Assembly: GCF_041146345.1 (NCBI RefSeq)
Contig: NW_027191415.1
Location: forward strand, 620,001 to 684,000
Source: Neodothiora populina
Taxonomy: Eukaryota
DNA: 64,000 bases
Direction: 5' to 3'
Shown here: positions 116-60,400 of the stretch, piece by piece
Position numbering within the stretch: position 1 is the first letter of the stretch
Layout of the letters: the number at the start of each line of letters is the position of its first letter
Program-made: the position numbers and the translations under genes
The notes under the pieces: model-generated
Databases searched by the model: none
Told to the model about the DNA's origin: nothing
What the model saw: the letters and a program-made list of their open reading frames with translations, nothing else

Positions 116-1166
116 GCTGCCGCTGAGCTCTCAGCTTTCCCGGAGTAACGGCGGATGGTCTTCGGGGACTGATCTCAGGTGGTGGAGCAGACGGTGCAGA
201 CTCAGACACAGGCCTGGGTCTCCCTGAGAAGAAGGGATGGGTAGGTACCCGCGAGGCGCGCCCTTTGCGTGCAGGAGGTGGAGGCATAAACTTGGTGGGC
301 AATTTGACGATGAGACTCGGGCGAATGTATCGCTCGCTTCCAGATAGAATGCGGTCAATTCTACCACCCACATCGCGCTCATCCAGGGCATAGTGACAGA
401 CGACGTTCCGGTGCTTGCCCTTTTCCCTGCCATCCAAACCCTTCCCAGTCTTCTTTTGGGGTCCACTCTCTTTCACAGGCGATGCAAGTCGACCTCCAGC
501 CTTGAGCTGCATCATCCTCTTAGGTGGGCTTTTCGGTGGTAGAGTGAGAGGAACCTCTTGGGCCGGAGGAGGTGGCTTCATGGATTGATCGGCTGAGGGT
601 GGTGCATTGTCGACGATTTGTCCCGACGTCGAGATCAGGGACGCCGCTTCTGGTTGAGACGAGGGCAGATTGGTGGGACTCGACACAGGTACAACCATAT
701 CCTCGGCGCCTCGATCGTCTGGTTGGTGCAGAGAAGGTGGTGTGTACGGAGGGGGAGGGGTCGAAGTGTCGTGTACATCGTCCTGGCTCAATCTGCGCCT
801 CTTTCTACGCATATCGCTCTGCTCCTCGGTTGTCTCTTCTGTTGCTGGCTTGGCTTGTGCATCGATTTGTACATTGGGAACAGCGACGAAACTCGTCACT
901 GTCGACTGCACCCCCTTGCCCTTTCCTCGACCTCTCGGTCGTCCACGCCCGCGTTTAGTGGCTGTGGGAAATGGATCCTTGGATGCAGATGGGTTCATGG
1001 TCATGTCCGTGTCTGTGTCATTGTTGACTACTTGAACATTGGGCGGAGGGGCTGCATCATGTCTGTCGACCTCGTGACCATCGTCTCTGGACGGCTTGTT
1101 GGCAAAGAAAGGATGCAATGACTTTCGACCATTGTCCATTGGGGGCAGAACCGACGCTGCTGCCAT
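1..1166 (-). CDS. 5' part of a probable Elg1/ATAD5-like RFC-like clamp unloader (continues beyond the left edge)
   Basis: Open frame from ATG at 1166 to the window edge; absent from the ORF track because no stop is reached. Reads MAAASVLPPMDNGRKSLHPFF...KRGRGRPR...QSTVTSFV...PPKRMMQLKAGGRLASP...GRIDRILSG...THPFF...SAVTPGKL then Q26. The HPFF, RIDRILSG and PPKRM motifs resemble the N-terminus of fungal Elg1 as recalled. The ATPase domain is not in the window. Confidence 0.55.
48..116. repeat. (TTG)23 microsatellite, part of a 26-Gln tract (42-119) on the minus strand
   Basis: Perfect trinucleotide run in frame with the 1166-> ORF. Confidence 0.97.
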
Positions 1167-1641: not shown

Positions 1642-4564
1642 ATGTCACAGGAAGCGCTGGTTGAAGCGCCATTCACTCTTGCATCTCTGCCCACACCATA
1701 CGATGCTACTGCTGGGAAAACCCTTGCTGCGCCCGTCTACGGTCTCCGCGCGCAGAGATGGAGGAAAAGATCTGAGATTGCCGTCGCCGTCGACGGCGAC
1801 GGCATAACCATCTACAACGTATGTTATCCCTATGAATGTGATGTAATCTGCTGATCTAATCATCTTATCCAATGCTCAGGTGCGCAATCCTCGCCTTGTC
1901 ACGTCGTATGCTCTCCCTCCGCAGACTCGATTCCTCTGCCCGCCCTACTCGGTCTACTACAAACCTTCGGGACAGAAAGCACAACGAGTCACATACGCCG
2001 CTGTCACAAACTCGGCAGAAAAGAAGTCGGAGGTTGTCGCCTTTGTCGAGGAGGTCAAGTCCGACTCGTCAGATCTGTCCGCCGAATCGCAGATCAAGAC
2101 GAGCTACCCTCTCTCCAACAAACCTGTCTTGGCCCTTTGCCCTCTGGCCTCTCACTCCGACAACACTGATCTTGCATCCGCTCTCGATCTGTGTCTTGTC
2201 TACGAAGACGGCACCGTCGAAACTATATCCGGAGACTTGGCCTCCAAGAGATGGGACGCAGAGGCCGATCAAGCAATCGCTCTGGCCCAGGGTGCGTCTG
2301 TGCAAGCACTCGGACACGTCCAGTACGCCACCGTCACCGACGTAGAGAAGGCACGCAAGGGTCTGTTGAAGAGCAGAGAAGACGCTCTTGCCGTTGTTGT
2401 CGGTTCTGATCTTGCCAACAACTCGGCTGCTTTGAATGTTCCGCTGCTCGTCCTGGCTGCCGTTTCCGAAGGCACCAGTCGCATCCACATCTTCGCATTA
2501 CCCTCAAGATCCAAGCATCTCGTATCTACAACTCATCCTGGCCTACATCATCTGCTGACCTACGACCTGCCTTCCTCGGGAGCATCTGCTACCGGTTCCG
2601 ACAAGGCCACCTTCTCCCTACACGCTTCGAGCGGCAAGCTTCAGCAGCTGCTTGCGGGCTCCCTCACCACCTATGATCTCTCTACGACTGTGCCCCGTGT
2701 GCTGTCCACCCTTACCTCTCGCCCCTCGAACCCCTACAGCAGCTTCGTCCAGTTGACCCCTGCCCTTGTCATGGCATCTGACTCCTCGACATGTGCCATG
2801 TTTGACACCAAGTACAGTTCTTTGCAGGGCCAGCTGCCTCTGACTGGAGAATACCTTGCATCTGCTTCTGGCAAGAGAAAGAAGACCGAAGGCGCCTCCA
2901 CTCTTCCTCTCCACTTTGTCGCTTTCTTTTCCGACCTCGGTCTTGCCGCTGCCATCTCGGGAAATGCGCTCGTCGGCCTTCAGCTCAATGTCTCTGCTCC
3001 TGTCTACAAAAAGTCCCGATCTGGCACCAGTCTGCTCATCAACTCTCTGGGCAAAGGTCTCGACCACGTCAAAGGCCTCGACAGCGAGACCGAAGCCGCC
3101 TTCTCCACCTGGAGGACACAGATAGACAGCTTGCTCGCTGAGGGCGACATCGACCCTCTCGAGCGTTTCTTGGCCGCCGAACTTGAGAATGGTCTGTCCA
3201 AGTCGCAGAAGCCTACAAAACGTGGCAAGCACGGCAAGGACAAGCAACCAGAGGAGACCAAGGAACCGAAAGCAGTGGCATCCGCCCAGCAAGACGACAG
3301 CACAATGCAGCTCGTGTCGCACAGCCCTTCGCAAACCTGGGATTTCAAGACCAACAAAAACCTTGTTCAGAGGACCGATCGCCGAAAAGCACTTTACATC
3401 TTGAGCAGAATGTTCGCCTGGACCTCTGACCTTTCTCAGGACCAATCATCAATTCGCTTCGTCTTCTTCGCCGCAAACATCTTTAAATGGCTTGCATTGG
3501 TCGGCTACATGAACACACTGAACATCGAACGTGCTCTACGCGAGTGCCCCTCCGAGACCCCCGCCGTAGCATCGGCAAAGGTAAACTCGGGAGATCTCAT
3601 GCGTGCTCTTGCCGAGCTGGACCCCGAGATGCATATCATGCACGAGTTCCTTGGCTGGCCCATCCACATTGATATCGACGAGGTTGCCGTCGCCCTGCGC
3701 ACACTTGTCAAATCACTCGACGACCCTCAGCCTGGTCTCATCAGCAAGTTGATCACGTCCGGCGCACTGGACACGAACTTACTGCCAGAAGCTCACGCCA
3801 CCAGCGACGAGCAAGGCGCACTCGAAGCTGCCGAAGCCGACCTCCAATACGCCACTGCACAGCTGGAAACGGGTCTCAATGTGCGCAGCACAAGTCTCCG
3901 CACGGTCTTCCATCGCCTGCATTCCTTCCCTGCTTCCTCCATAGTCACGGCTCTCAAATCCCACCTTCAACAAGCCCACCTGATTTTCTTCATCCAGCTC
4001 CTACGAGTTGAGCTGGCAGACGGCGGCTGGACGACTCGTTATCTCGATTACCTCATCTCGCCTCGCGTCGCCGAGCTCTCGGAAGGCGAGCGACCCGCGG
4101 ATAATTCTTTGATCATCATCAGCAACCTTCTTTCCTGCGGTGTCGACGCCGTTGGCCTTCAGGGCTGGATGGTACCACCTTCACAAGAAAAAGACAACGT
4201 CATCGAGACTCTGCGTGCAGAGACATCAGCAGCCATGGAGGGGGCTTACGAGGCCTGCGAAATGGGCAGTTTCCTCTGCGACTTTGAGCGCTTCGCGCAC
4301 ACCCTTCACCAGCAAGCCAAGGAAGAGAAGAAAGACAGCAGCAGCAGCAAGAACGCGGGCAAAGTCGACGCCATCAAGAGGCCGGGCTTCGAGGACCTCG
4401 GCGATGTCGTCGACCCCGTCCTGCCCATGGGCATGAAGGTGCAGAAGATTGAGAAGATGCTCGTCAGAGCCGGCGGCAGAGAGCAGAAGAAGAGTAAGAG
4501 TCTGCTGGGTAAGGAGCGCAGTATGCGCGTGGGTAAGTACAGTTTCGATCGCATCAGGGTGTAA
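1642..4564 (+). CDS. UTP8: U3 snoRNA-associated protein 8 (Utp8); exons 1642-1818, 1880-4564
   Basis: N-terminus MSQEALVEAPFTLASLP and C-terminus RVGKYSFDRIRV match fungal Utp8. A 61-nt intron (GTATGT..CTAAT..CAG) joins the two ORFs in frame. Confidence 0.8.
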
Positions 4565-33593: not shown

Positions 33594-35465
33594 GTTGAAC
33601 AAAGCACTGATTTAGAGGGCACATGATGCGCGAGTGAGCCGGTCCGCCGCCGCAGACCCAGACAATCGACATCCGCGCCGATGTTCTTTCTTGTCGCGGA
33701 GTACGAAGGTGGAAGCAAATCAGAGTGATGAGAATGACGCAGAAAGCCCACCGGAGCGTGTTTCCTCGAGAACTAAACCCGAGCCCTGACACATTCGGTG
33801 ATTCGAGAATGAGACGCATGGACATGCCCGTGGTCAGATACTCCTGCCGGTTATCCACTTGTGCGGGTTTGTGCGTCACACGGGGTACATGGTGCATCTC
33901 CTCGCTCGAGGCACCTACCCAATTGATTGCGGTTTTCTTTTCTTTTTCTCTTCTTGTTTATGTGGGCTCGCGCTCGCTCGATGATTGGGGGATCTCTTGG
34001 GGGGCTGCTGCTCACCGACCTTTTGCGCGATATAGTGGAATTGGACATGACTATGGGATGATGTGCATAATCTGGCATGCGATATGTCGTGCCTGAGCGA
34101 CGCTTTGACCCTTTTAGGGCGCTGATTGTTCAGAGGGCAACCCTGTCCACATCGTGTCGACGATGCTATCGCGAGAATCGGTCTTCTTCGCGGTGACCTT
34201 GCTTGCTCGTCACCATCGCACGGTCTGTAGCCCTTCCACACTTTTCGGTCCGCTTATTGCTGGGAGCCTTCTCAAAATCAGACTATTTGAACATCATACC
34301 TCATGACAAACGTCAGAAGGTCCAAGTTTGGCAAGCACTCACCTTGCTCCTCGTGTATCCTATGTTGCCATCATCATTTAATTCCATTTTGCAACAAGTA
34401 CACAAACTTAGAAATCATATTCGATTCGATCAGTGGCATATACAAAAGCCAGGTAGATCAGCGTGAGTGAATGTCATCGTATTGCCCTGACTATAGTTCC
34501 AGAATGTCTTGCGCTTCGTGTTGATCATGTCCAAGACAGAAATGAAACAGGATGATATAAAGTGCTGTATATCAGCCCAAGCAAAAGCCACACTACTTCT
34601 CGAAACCTCTCAGAAGACCCAACCTCATTACTGTACTCGGCTCGCATATCATCGGTCGAGCACAATATTCATGACGATCGAGCCAATTCGCGAGCGATAT
34701 ATGGGGTGCCACACTCGGCGTCATGATCGCTCTTCTATTTACCATGCGCTGGATCAGCGATACAGCACTTCGGTACAAGTAATGGTTTCCCGAATGTCAG
34801 TACGAAGGACCGCCAAGTACTAACGGCACGCCGCGATCCATATAGCCAAAACAGTAGAGGACCCAAGCGAAGTCTGAAGATAGGGAGCCAATACGGCACT
34901 AAAGTACTGCGGATCACTAAGATTGCTGTACTGTATGGACTAGAGCATGTATATACAAAGCGCCAACTTCACTCGATAATCCTCACATACAAGTACAGTA
35001 GTTACCTTATCATACTATCACGATGTCTTTAACGCTGGAGACGAGGCGCGCAAAGTGAAGTAGTCACAAGTACCATTTGCAGCCAAGAATAGCATGCTTT
35101 CGCTTCTTGGCACATTCCTTGCCTGGAAGTAAGCGCGCCAGGACCAAGCGTTGGCGCCTTGAAACGCTTCCAGTATTGGAGACGCCCATCCCAAAAATAT
35201 GGTCCAGACAATAGATGCGTCTGACTGGACAGCGCGACCGGGAACACAGAGTCAGGAGCGCGCAGACAAAGTAGCTGCAATAAGTTTTCCACAGTCCCTG
35301 AGTAATGCTCTGACACTGCTACTCGTGCATGGCGCATAAGTTGATCCTGGTCTTGAGGGCTGGCTGGTGAAGTGACTGACTATACTTTCTTTACCCCTCG
35401 TGCCCCTCATTTAGATCGTCTGCCCTTGACATCAATAATCAAGAAAGCTACTCGAAGGATAAGAC

Positions 35466-54150: not shown

Positions 54151-54318
54151 AAAAAAATTGGTTTGTCTGCGAGAGAATCCATTAGCAACTGTATTCAATA
54201 TGTCTAAATGTCAATGGTGGGAATCGAACTAACCTCTTTGTTCACATGTGTCATCCTTAGTGCAGGGGCCATGCTAATCTTCTCTGTATAGTTTCAAATT
54301 GACCAAATGCCCGAAGGC
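54151..54318 (-). ncRNA. U6: U6 spliceosomal snRNA, split by an intron (exons ~54318-54234, 54166-54151)
   Basis: GCCTTCGGGC 5' hairpin, then ACAGAGAAGATTAGCATGGCCCCTGCACTAAGGATGACAC (ACAGAGA box, AGC triad, ISL), CAAAGAG|ACAAACCAA and a T7 Pol III terminator. Confidence 0.96.
54167..54233 (-). other. 67-nt spliceosomal intron within U6 containing a Pol III B-box
   Basis: Donor GTTAGT, branch GCTAAT, acceptor GCAG; AGTTCGATTCC at 54230-54220. Confidence 0.88.
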
Positions 54319-54340
54319 GAAGTTGGTCCTATTTCTACTG

Positions 54341-54348
54341 ATTATATA
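54341..54348 (-). promoter_or_regulatory. TATA box of the U6 gene
   Basis: TATATAAT about 23-30 nt upstream of the inferred +1; internal A-box-like TGGTCAATTTG at 54305-54295. Confidence 0.7.
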
Positions 54349-57493: not shown

Positions 57494-60400
57494 CTACACA
57501 CATTCCCATTCCGCAAAGACGCACCACCTGGCGCTGCGATCCGCGAGCACGAGGCCTCTCCAAGTACCGCGCTCTCCGACTTTGATGACCGTTTCCCACG
57601 TACTACCCAGGCTCTCGGCGTCCAAGTCATCGATATCGCGTCTGCGCTCGGCATACTCCTGCTTGCGCGTCAATCTGATGATCTTGCCGCTGGGGCTCTG
57701 CATGGCCAATTTTGCCGGTTTCTGCTGCTTGTCCGTCATCGAGCCGTCGGAGTAGTTGCTCCCGGAGTGGGACACGCTGGCGGCGGCGGAGACCATGCTC
57801 ATGGCGCTACCTGGGCGGTTGTAGGGGGTTGGACTCGTGGCGCGCATCGACATTGCGCTGCTGCGGCCGTTGTTACCGCTGGGCGTGGCTGCTGATGATC
57901 CCCATGTGTCCGGGGAGAAGCGCGAGAGTGACGATGGATGCTGGCGGACGCAGAAGACAAATGTGTTGTTGATCACTAGTCGCGCGCACTGTGGTTGTGC
58001 CACGTAGAGGTCGTGACGCTGGGCGTGAGGAGTGGGATGACGCGTGAGGAAAGCATACGGCGGATTCTGGCCTGTGTGGAAGAGGGGGACAGCGAGGGCG
58101 AGAGGGTGTGGATTGTCTTTGTTTGAATGCTGTGAATGCGTTGTTAGCGAGTGTCATTTGTGTCTGTGATCCGGTCGTACTCACCATCAATCCCCTTTTG
58201 CCGACATAGATCTTCAGTACACCCTGCCCTTCATCACCGGGCAGGAGCGCCTTGATCATGAAATGCTTCCTTCCACCAACCCACTCGACCTGAGCCAGAG
58301 CAGATTTCTTCACGATATCACCAGTCTCAAAGGTATCACCGTCCCAGTCGCTGGCGAAGGCTCGTGCCTCAACTTCGGCAACACACTCGACGTCTTCAGG
58401 GACCGCCAGCTGCAGATGGGCCATCTCCAGATTCTCCAGATGAAGGACTGAAGTGTCAAAGTTGACAAGCTCCACATGATGGCGGAAGTATGGTGCAGCC
58501 GCACAAGGCAGCGCCATCAAGATCTCATGAGGAACAGGAGGTACTATGTGCTGCTGCTCCGGCAACAAAGGTACATGGGTGAAGCAGATCTCCATGGGTC
58601 TGGCGAGAAAGTACCAGCTGTCGGCCATGTTCGGGTTCGTCGAGCTGTATTGACTACGTCGAGGGTGCGTCGGGCCAGCGAGGGCACAGTCGATGATGCG
58701 CCACTCACCATCAACGATGACCGCATTCCAGTAATGGTTCGGACGAGCAATGGTGTCGAGATCCAGACTTTCACCTGGGCCCTTCAGGTAGCCGCGCACG
58801 ACCTCAGCGTGGAGTCCGACGGCAGCACAGAGATCGCGCACAAGAGCGGCAATTTCCTCACTGCATCCACGTTTACTGCTGAGAACACGTCTCGTGTCAA
58901 TCTGGCCCTCGAAGTCTTCCTCCCAAGCAATTCGTTCACCGACCCAGGTGAAGATGGCGCGTAGCCGCTGGACGTCACTCCTGTAGGGTCGACAAAGATA
59001 GCTCTGGGCGAGAGTGGTGGGAGTGACCATCTGCGGTAGACCTGCGACGAATCTTGTACCCTTATCTACCAGCGCTAGGTTAGATGTGTTGAAGTCTGTC
59101 GGATCCGTGATAGCCAAGCCATCCAACCCCTCGTCACCTTCAGCATGCTCCATGAGTTCGTCGATTGGGTTGACGACAAACATATCAAGCATCTCGCATC
59201 TCTCGGCCCTTTCGTTCTTCTCATTCTTGCTGAGGGAGTTGGATCTGTTTACGTCTCGACGGACTTGCATCCAGTCGTTGCCGCCACCGAGACCCATATC
59301 ACGATGAGCACCCATATCCGGTGAAAGTGGAGCAGCAGTGCCTCCGGCAATGGCGGTGACGCCATCAGGCATGGTGCCCATCTTCTTCGGAGAACCTACG
59401 CGGCTCGAAGGTCTGCCACTTGAGTGCATGGCCCTCGCGTTCGCAGCACCCGTCTTCGCAGTAGTCTTTGCAGTTTCGACCATTCTCTTGAAAAAGCCAC
59501 TCTTCTTGGCCTTCGGAGCCGCTAAGCCTCCGAGTACACCTGCATTCTCCATGGGATCTGATATCCAATCAGCCATTGGCGTTTGTGCGGGCTGTGTGGC
59601 ATGACTTGAGTGATAGCTGATACCAGAAACGGGTGACATCGGCCGAGTGTTTTCTTTTTCTATATGAGCATCTTGTTGGAATGCGCCTCGAATATCACCA
59701 ATGGACTTGGAACTGATTGCGCTCAAGGGCCGCTTCTGCTTCATACTGCCCATGCCAAACTTTCTTCTAGCCAGACTGCCGGCACTTGTTGCGCTGAAGC
59801 CGCCAGCCGAATAACCGCTCATTAGGGTATGATCGGTCATCTGCGTGCTATTCGACTGGTTGGTGCTTGAAGTCGCATTGCTTCGCCATCCTGATGATGA
59901 GGTGGTGACGCTTGTCTTGGTCGTCATAGTCCGAGAGAGAGGTTGCCTCCCAAGCTCATACGCAGACTTTCGAGGGCTGATGGCTTTGTATCCTTGCGAA
60001 CTCGAGCTGCTAGCTGTTGTGGGCCGACTGCCGGATTGGGAACCACGGGACGTGGGTCGGTCATTGTAGTCCTGGTAAGAGCTCGAGAATCCCGCGCTAG
60101 ACGTTGGATTGTGTCGAAGATGGTTCTCCATCCGCTGCACATAATTGCCAACCGTTGCAACACCGTCTCGGGAAGCTGGGACCGCTTCTTCTTCGTAGCC
60201 ACCCCGCTCGTAGCTATCTTGACGTGTGTGCATGGCCATGGCAGATTGCGCTCTCACGGGTTGAGTGCGCCTACCGTGAGACTGGCCGAAAGACTCGGGT
60301 GACCAGATGTTCGATGGTGAATCAGGTCGTGGATGATGATGAGACGTGGGAGGAACAGAGTTTGAAAGAGGCGGAGGCGAAGACGGACTGCACACACTAC

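Follow-up and report, generated by a model that had tools for sequence, protein, structure and literature searches.

A fungal U6 snRNA gene with a probable spliceosomal intron that holds its only recognisable B box

The U6 snRNA gene and its surroundings

The window, by which we mean the whole stretch of 64 kb analysed here, holds a single U6 snRNA gene. The gene lies on the minus strand and is matched by the Rfam model RF00026 at 54318..54219 (75.0 bits at a gathering score of 44, E 3.5e-17, model positions 1-105). Both the sequence and the Rfam alignment have an intact ACAGAGA (54287..54281, minus strand) and an intact AGC triad (54275..54273, minus strand), in agreement with an earlier note, which had described a complete U6 core on this strand. 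The 5' exon runs through a short 5' stem-loop, ACAGAGA, the AGC triad and the internal stem-loop to its end in CAAAGAG at 54234, and the gene is a fungal, ascomycete-like U6. Besides U6, no Rfam family scored above its gathering score in the 64 kb, a relaxed Rfam search returned no other family at E<=1 between 53700 and 55600, and no tRNA genes were found in the window. The U6 gene is located in a gap of ~1.8 kb between ordinary eukaryotic ORFs, with an ORF for an EamA/SLC35F-type transporter on one side and an ORF without Pfam match on the other; a MYND-finger ORF and a transglutaminase-core ORF lie farther out.

For comparison, metagenome contigs were searched with 28 nt from the U6 core of the window, which yielded at least 118 loci. 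Together with two second copies and the gene of the window itself, this amounts to at least 121 U6 copies; 106 copies, including that of the window, are unique and are followed by 120 nt of sequence or more. All 14 loci tested with Rfam passed the U6 cut-off, with scores of 51-88 bits. The TATA box of the window lies 44 nt before the GGTC anchor of the 5' region, which is the modal distance in these relatives. Among the matches listed, 28 of 80 unique uninterrupted copies show a TATA-like element at 42-46 nt, and such an element is absent by the pattern used in 32 of the 80. The distance of the TATA box and the start of the Rfam model together place the probable transcription start near 54318. 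The features of the locus are collected in Table 1.

Table 1 Features of the U6 locus in the window, with the observations on which each assignment is based.
Feature	Position	Strand	Basis or remark
TATA box TATATAA	54342..54348	-	~30 nt upstream of the predicted start
U6 5' exon, 85 nt	54234..54318	-	RF00026 match; start placed to within ~2 nt
Predicted U6 intron, 67 nt, mRNA-type	54167..54233	-	sole single-intron model; splice signals
B-box-like element AGTTCGATTCC	54220..54230	-	intron +4 to +14; ~+89 from the predicted start
U6 3' exon body ACAAACCAA	54158..54166	-	sequence and single-intron model; end matches relatives
T7 run, predicted to stop Pol III and to encode the 3' U tract of U6	54151..54157	-	first T5+ run after the core

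Removal of a 67-nt segment restores the U6 3' end

The 3' end of the gene can be compared with its relatives by the distance between GACAC, which ends the stem-loop, and the first run of five or more T. This distance is 21-25 nt in 88 of the 106 unique copies, among the matches listed. In the window it amounts to 90 nt in the unspliced sequence and to 23 nt after removal of 54233-54167, and exactly one GT..AG deletion brings it into the range of 21-25 nt, namely the proposed intron. The restored tail is also found in other U6 genes: ACCAA, the T7 run and the following GGCA are identical in 16 of 16 positions to the 3' end of an intronless U6 gene (L013), and ACCAA with T7 was found again at the U6 ends of many relatives. 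The proposal of the earlier note that the U6 3' end is regained only by cutting out 67 nt is thus borne out by both the shortening from 90 to 23 nt and the identity of the tail.

The note had also suggested a comparison of the spliced and the unspliced sequence, which was carried out here with an nhmmer profile of 65 unique intronless relatives. The spliced form scored 87.5 bits and aligned over model positions 2-101 of 102, whereas the unspliced form scored 83.6 bits and aligned over positions 2-88 only, so that the full-length alignment was obtained with the spliced form alone. Splicing adds 3.9 bits, a small gain that reflects the low conservation of U6 tails. Within 40 nt on either side of the intron, no other 67-nt deletion scored higher with this profile. 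A blastn-short search of the intron and 300 nt upstream against the at least 118 loci gave matches at the 3' exon end and the core of the B box alone. Consensus folding and a search for covariation gave no clear sign that the 3' tail pairs with the 5' UUUGGU region.

The removed segment carries the canonical signals of an mRNA-type intron, as had been described from the sequence before. On the minus strand, the 5' splice site GTTAGT is located at 54233..54228, the branch site CTAAT at 54185..54181 and the 3' splice site CAG at 54169..54167; the branch A (54182) lies 15 nt before the 3' end. The insertion follows CAAAGAG, ~40 nt 3' of the AGC triad and 9 nt before the U tract. With a T at intron position +3, GTTAGT belongs to a minority of the 5' splice sites in fungi. 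On both strands of the window, the pattern GTTAGT-N25-55-CTAAY-N8-25-YAG has a single match, which is the U6 intron, at an expectation of 0.29. When the 90-nt stretch was shuffled, a strict intron model (GTNNGT, YAG and a CTRAY branch site) that restores a tail of 21-25 nt was obtained in 19 of 20,000 shuffles, and a loose GT..AG model in 5,433 of 20,000 shuffles of the same stretch. Taken together, the intron model and its splice signals indicate more than chance.

The longest T run inside the 67 nt is three, and the first run of five or more T follows 90 nt after the core, which agrees with the earlier view that Pol III could read through the segment. Sixty-seven nucleotides free of T4 are required for the intron reading, yet by our estimate they are not improbable and are no rarity in themselves. 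Candidate introns in protein ORFs, obtained by a crude joining of ORFs, numbered three per run, too few to define the splice-site usage of this genome. They are located at 58184..58130 (minus strand, GTGAGT..CTAAC), 1819..1879 (plus strand, GTATGT..CTAAT) and 34796..34845 (plus strand, GTCAGT..CTAAC); their length of 50-61 nt is similar to that of the U6 intron, and CTAAT occurs in one of them.

A different view of the segment would be a long U6 RNA that keeps the 67 nt, or one whose 3' end is trimmed inside them. In line with this, the Rfam alignment extends the unconserved 3' tail of the model over 15 nt at the beginning of the segment. However, nearly no letters match in this part of the alignment, and no U tract was found in the aligned tail. 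No run of four or more T precedes 54157, which leaves Pol III no earlier stop, and a retained insert would part CAAAGAG from a U tract that follows the stem-loop at the 21-25 nt found in 88 of 106 copies, among the matches listed. In addition, the canonical splice signals would be left unexplained without splicing. We consider such a transcript very improbable. The signals and the restored 3' end make it likely that 54233-54167 is a spliced intron, and the locus as a whole is probably a Pol III-transcribed U6 gene whose 3' terminal domain is split by one spliceosomal intron.

A B-box match within the proposed intron

The consensus of the tRNA-type B box is GGTTCGANTCC, and the element AGTTCGATTCC inside the proposed intron matches 9 of its 10 specified positions. 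The core of the element, GTTCGANTCC, has one exact match on both strands of the 64 kb, which is located inside the U6 intron, while 0.47 matches are expected. With up to two mismatches to GGTTCGANTCC, no second match on the sense strand was found from 52576 to the end of the window; the only other sense-strand match on that side is ~1.6 kb off and lies within a coding ORF. No B box was found downstream of the terminator in the 400 nt after the window's U6 core, and the intron holds the only recognisable B box of the gene. Its position at about +89 from the start corresponds to a tRNA-like distance. The A-box consensus with up to two mismatches is uninformative (286 matches in the window versus 294 expected), and the A block of the gene is assumed from its position alone. 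The earlier note did not contain the B-box element. Its presence in the intron of the window's U6 gene is the new observation of this analysis, and in our view a more interesting one than the position of the intron near the 3' end.

We further looked at the distribution of B boxes in the 106 unique copies. Among the matches listed, 29 B-box-like matches were counted on the sense strand just after the core (15,878 nt), compared with five on the antisense strand after the core and two in 53,282 nt upstream. This enrichment on the sense strand indicates that B boxes are a real feature of the U6 genes compared. A strict B box is present in 29 of the 106 copies and absent within 150 nt in the remaining 77, among the matches listed. 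Many such genes evidently function with a degenerate B box or none, so that the intronic match of the window is perhaps not essential. In intronless copies, most B-box-like sites follow the start of the T run by 17-104 nt; the site of L059 does so by 186 nt.

Among the intron-bearing loci, the box, where present, is found either in the intron or behind the terminator. A strict B box in the intron and none after the terminator was seen in L034, L079 and L086, and in weaker form in L061. A B box 17-35 nt after the start of the terminator and none in the intron occurs in L071, L073, L084 and L107, and neither place holds a strict B box in L025 (which has a short flank), L047, L070 and L072. No intron-bearing locus with both an intronic and a downstream B box was found among the matches listed. 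A comparison of the introns that carry a B box revealed nothing in common beyond the splice signals and the box. This comparison speaks neither for nor against a shared ancestry or a transposition of these introns.

Three of these loci (L034, L079 and L061) have two or three U6 introns each. One intron is located in the loop of the 5' stem-loop and carries a perfect tRNA-type A box, TGGCCTAGTGG, which was seen in 3 of the 106 copies; another lies just past the internal stem-loop and contains a B-box-like element, so that in these three genes both boxes of the internal Pol III promoter are intronic. In L034, where U6 is on the minus strand, the A box is at oriented position 330 and the 3' intron at 399..346; the 3' introns of L079 and L061 are located at 432..484 and 430..486, respectively. 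A similar 5' intron with TGGCCTAGCGG was found in L095. In L086, a 56-nt intron of the form GTAAGC...CTAAC...TAG (128..183, plus strand) lies between GAAGAT and TAGCATGG and adjoins the AGC triad. It contains CGTTCGATTCC, no B box follows the terminator, and the U6 gene scores 51 bits with Rfam.

One might argue that the window's intron is real and spliced while its B-box match is incidental, so that the TATA box and exon-internal elements drive transcription. A 10-mer of the GTTCGANTCC type is expected 0.47 times in any such window, 77 of the 106 copies do without a strict B box within 150 nt, among the matches listed, and fungal U6 promoters can be without identifiable B blocks according to Canzler et al. 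2016, as reported in the part of PMC5855946 on U6 promoters. However, the chance that the lone match in 128 kb of strand falls within a target of 67 nt, and in sense orientation, is roughly 2-3 in 10,000. Moreover, an intronic B box without a downstream one recurs in L034, L079 and L086, and B boxes are strongly enriched on the sense strand after U6 cores. We therefore regard an incidental match as rather unlikely, and lean towards the view that the intronic element of the window serves as a B box.

Introns of related and known U6 genes

Introns within the last 25 nt of U6 were found in 11 of the 118 loci, at about six sites, among the matches listed. Given as the number of nucleotides after GACAC, they are located at offset 1 (L025, L034 and L061, the latter with a second intron four nt further on), 3 (L079), 5 (L070, L071 and L072), 6 (L107), 9 (L047) and 15 (L073 and L084); the intron of the window is at offset 14. 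Introns in the 5' half of the gene occur in L034, L079, L061, L095, L036, L046, L090, L108, L091, L118, L069 and L086. The earlier note had placed the insertion near the 3' end rather than next to ACAGAGA, and this position stands; the site is, however, not unusual, considering the 11 loci listed here and the published spread of U6 introns.

The introns of L073 and L084 resemble that of the window in being GTTAGT...CTAAT introns of the 3' tail, one nt further 3' and following CAAAGAGA. In contrast to the window, they have no intronic B box; theirs is located 26-35 nt after the start of the terminator. Similarity of L073 or L084 to the window's intron sequence did not appear among the 15 best blastn-short matches. 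The intron of the window was seen in none of the at least 118 metagenomic loci, a set without a close relative, among the matches listed. A search with the exon end in a collection of genome contigs, in which no close relative is sampled, gave 0 matches.

Several of the related loci deviate from the usual U6 gene. L070 and L071 lie ~2.5 kb apart on one contig, and the 3' tails of both contain the same intron of 50 nt. L071 seems to be an intact gene, with a T8 terminator and a B box located 17 nt from where this run starts. L070 has no T run, an ACAGAGA changed to ATAGAGA and an aberrant 5' part. These defects, together with the retained intron, give L070 the appearance of a duplicate that arose at the DNA level and decayed with the intron in place. 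Another group (L008, L054, L060, L062 and L112) forms a family of U6 copies whose tail ends in ...GCTAAAAAATTTAG with no run of four or more T; the first T5 follows after ~163 nt or is absent, and a GGTTCAATTAGC motif is located ~80 nt past the core. None of these five loci is accounted for by a single-intron model. In the second copies of L015 and L050 and in L041, a GC-rich, hairpin-like stretch replaces everything 5' of ACAGAGA. These three are without the usual UUGGUCAAUUUGAAAC region and may be variant or defective paralogues.

Such loci bear on the question of whether the gene of the window is itself an inactive or redundant paralogue, with a real or former intron or an insertion, while U6 is supplied by an intronless locus elsewhere. 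Two U6 copies are indeed found on some related contigs (L015, L050 and L070/L071), and the pseudogene-like L070, with its altered ACAGAGA and no T run, has kept its intron. In the window, however, the core scores 75 bits and retains both ACAGAGA and the AGC triad, the TATA box keeps the modal distance, and terminator (T7), splice signals and B box are all undamaged, a combination that is not expected in a decaying copy. A paralogue of this kind is in our opinion improbable, and the gene is probably the working U6 copy.

For a working gene of this kind, the features of the locus suggest the following course. TFIIIB would assemble on the TATA box and TFIIIC would bind the B box within the intron DNA. 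Pol III would start near 54318, read through the intron and stop at the T7 run (54157-54151), giving a precursor of ~168 nt. The spliceosome would then cut out 54233-54167 by means of GUUAGU, the branch site CUAAU and CAG. This would join ...CAAAGAG to ACAAACCAA and the U tract, yielding a U6 RNA of ~100 nt with a normal 3' end, whose U tract would be left available to 3'-end proteins. The intron would have a double role: it is removed from the RNA, and its DNA provides the sole recognisable B box. In prp mutants of S. pombe, in which splicing is impaired, a U6 precursor is reported to accumulate. A need for the spliceosome in the maturation of this U6 also assumes that no intronless second copy exists.

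The closest described case is that of fission yeast. As stated in the part of PMC5855946 on U6 genes, the sole U6 gene of S. pombe has a spliced intron adjoining the AGC triad, with the B block inside the intron; the primary reports given there are Tani & Ohshima 1989 and Frendewey et al. 1990. By this description, the gene of the window and that of S. pombe are both Pol III genes with a TATA box, one mRNA-type intron and a B block in this intron. The introns differ in position: that of the window lies ~40 nt 3' of the AGC triad, whereas that of S. pombe is located immediately beside it. L086 is, in this respect, a nearer positional analogue of S. pombe than the window. Splicing and the use of the B block have an experimental basis in the S. 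pombe gene described in PMC5855946, whereas those of the window are deduced from sequence and comparison. It appears that the window's gene would work like that of S. pombe, yet its intron is not the same one.

Introns of U6 are not confined to fission yeast. According to the account of Canzler et al. 2016 (RNA Biol 13:119) in PMC5855946, unrelated introns occur throughout U6 in many fungi, with up to four per gene; they have canonical signals, are otherwise unconserved, and many are lineage-specific. The same study is cited in the relevant passages of PMC5832005, PMC7827515 and PMC9518982, and fungal U6 genes are described in PMC7827515 as often having multiple introns. Like the introns so described, that of the window has canonical signals at both splice sites and at the branch. 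The statement of the earlier note that mRNA-type U6 introns are known in Schizosaccharomyces and other fungi agrees with what PMC5855946 says on the subject. The layout of fungal U6 promoters is described there as flexible, with experimental validation still called for. In S. cerevisiae, SNR6 is summarised in the same source as an intronless gene with an upstream TATA box, a TFIIIC-dependent B block and a T-run terminator; the B block lies downstream of the terminator, with an atypical A-B spacing of ~200 bp. A downstream B box as in this description of SNR6 is present in many of the intronless metagenomic relatives, but not in the gene of the window. For an intronic B box in a fungal U6 gene, the statement on S. 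pombe was the only one found in the literature covered, with Canzler et al. 2016 itself outside the search. The interrupted U6 gene of the window is well supported, and its arrangement has precedents, in principle, in fission yeast and other fungi.

Meaning for fungal U6 genes

The spliceosome has U6 as its catalytic RNA, and it would depend on its own product where the U6 gene itself needs splicing. U6 introns have been interpreted as relics of reverse splicing events in the active site. The site in the 3' terminal domain of the window's gene, together with the introns in the 3' tails of its relatives, weakens the idea that these insertions mark the active site.

Intronic B boxes are located at three or more positions of U6: after CAAAGAG in the window, 1-3 nt past the stem-loop in L034, L079 and L061, and beside the AGC triad in L086. 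Because of this spread, we tentatively propose that the internal promoter for Pol III might have moved into spliceosomal introns of U6 in a set of ascomycete-like fungi, repeatedly and at different sites, a possibility for which we claim less than even confidence. In this view, the introns that bear a promoter may have spread within U6 when an intron excised from U6 was spliced back into it. For guide-RNA expression from fungal U6 promoters, it matters in practice that part of the promoter may sit in a transcribed intronic region. An intronic B box would also provide a simple reason for the persistence of such introns, as their DNA is needed as a promoter. If the proposal is true, an intron with the only B box of its gene could no longer be lost, and the transcription of U6 and its splicing would be locked together.
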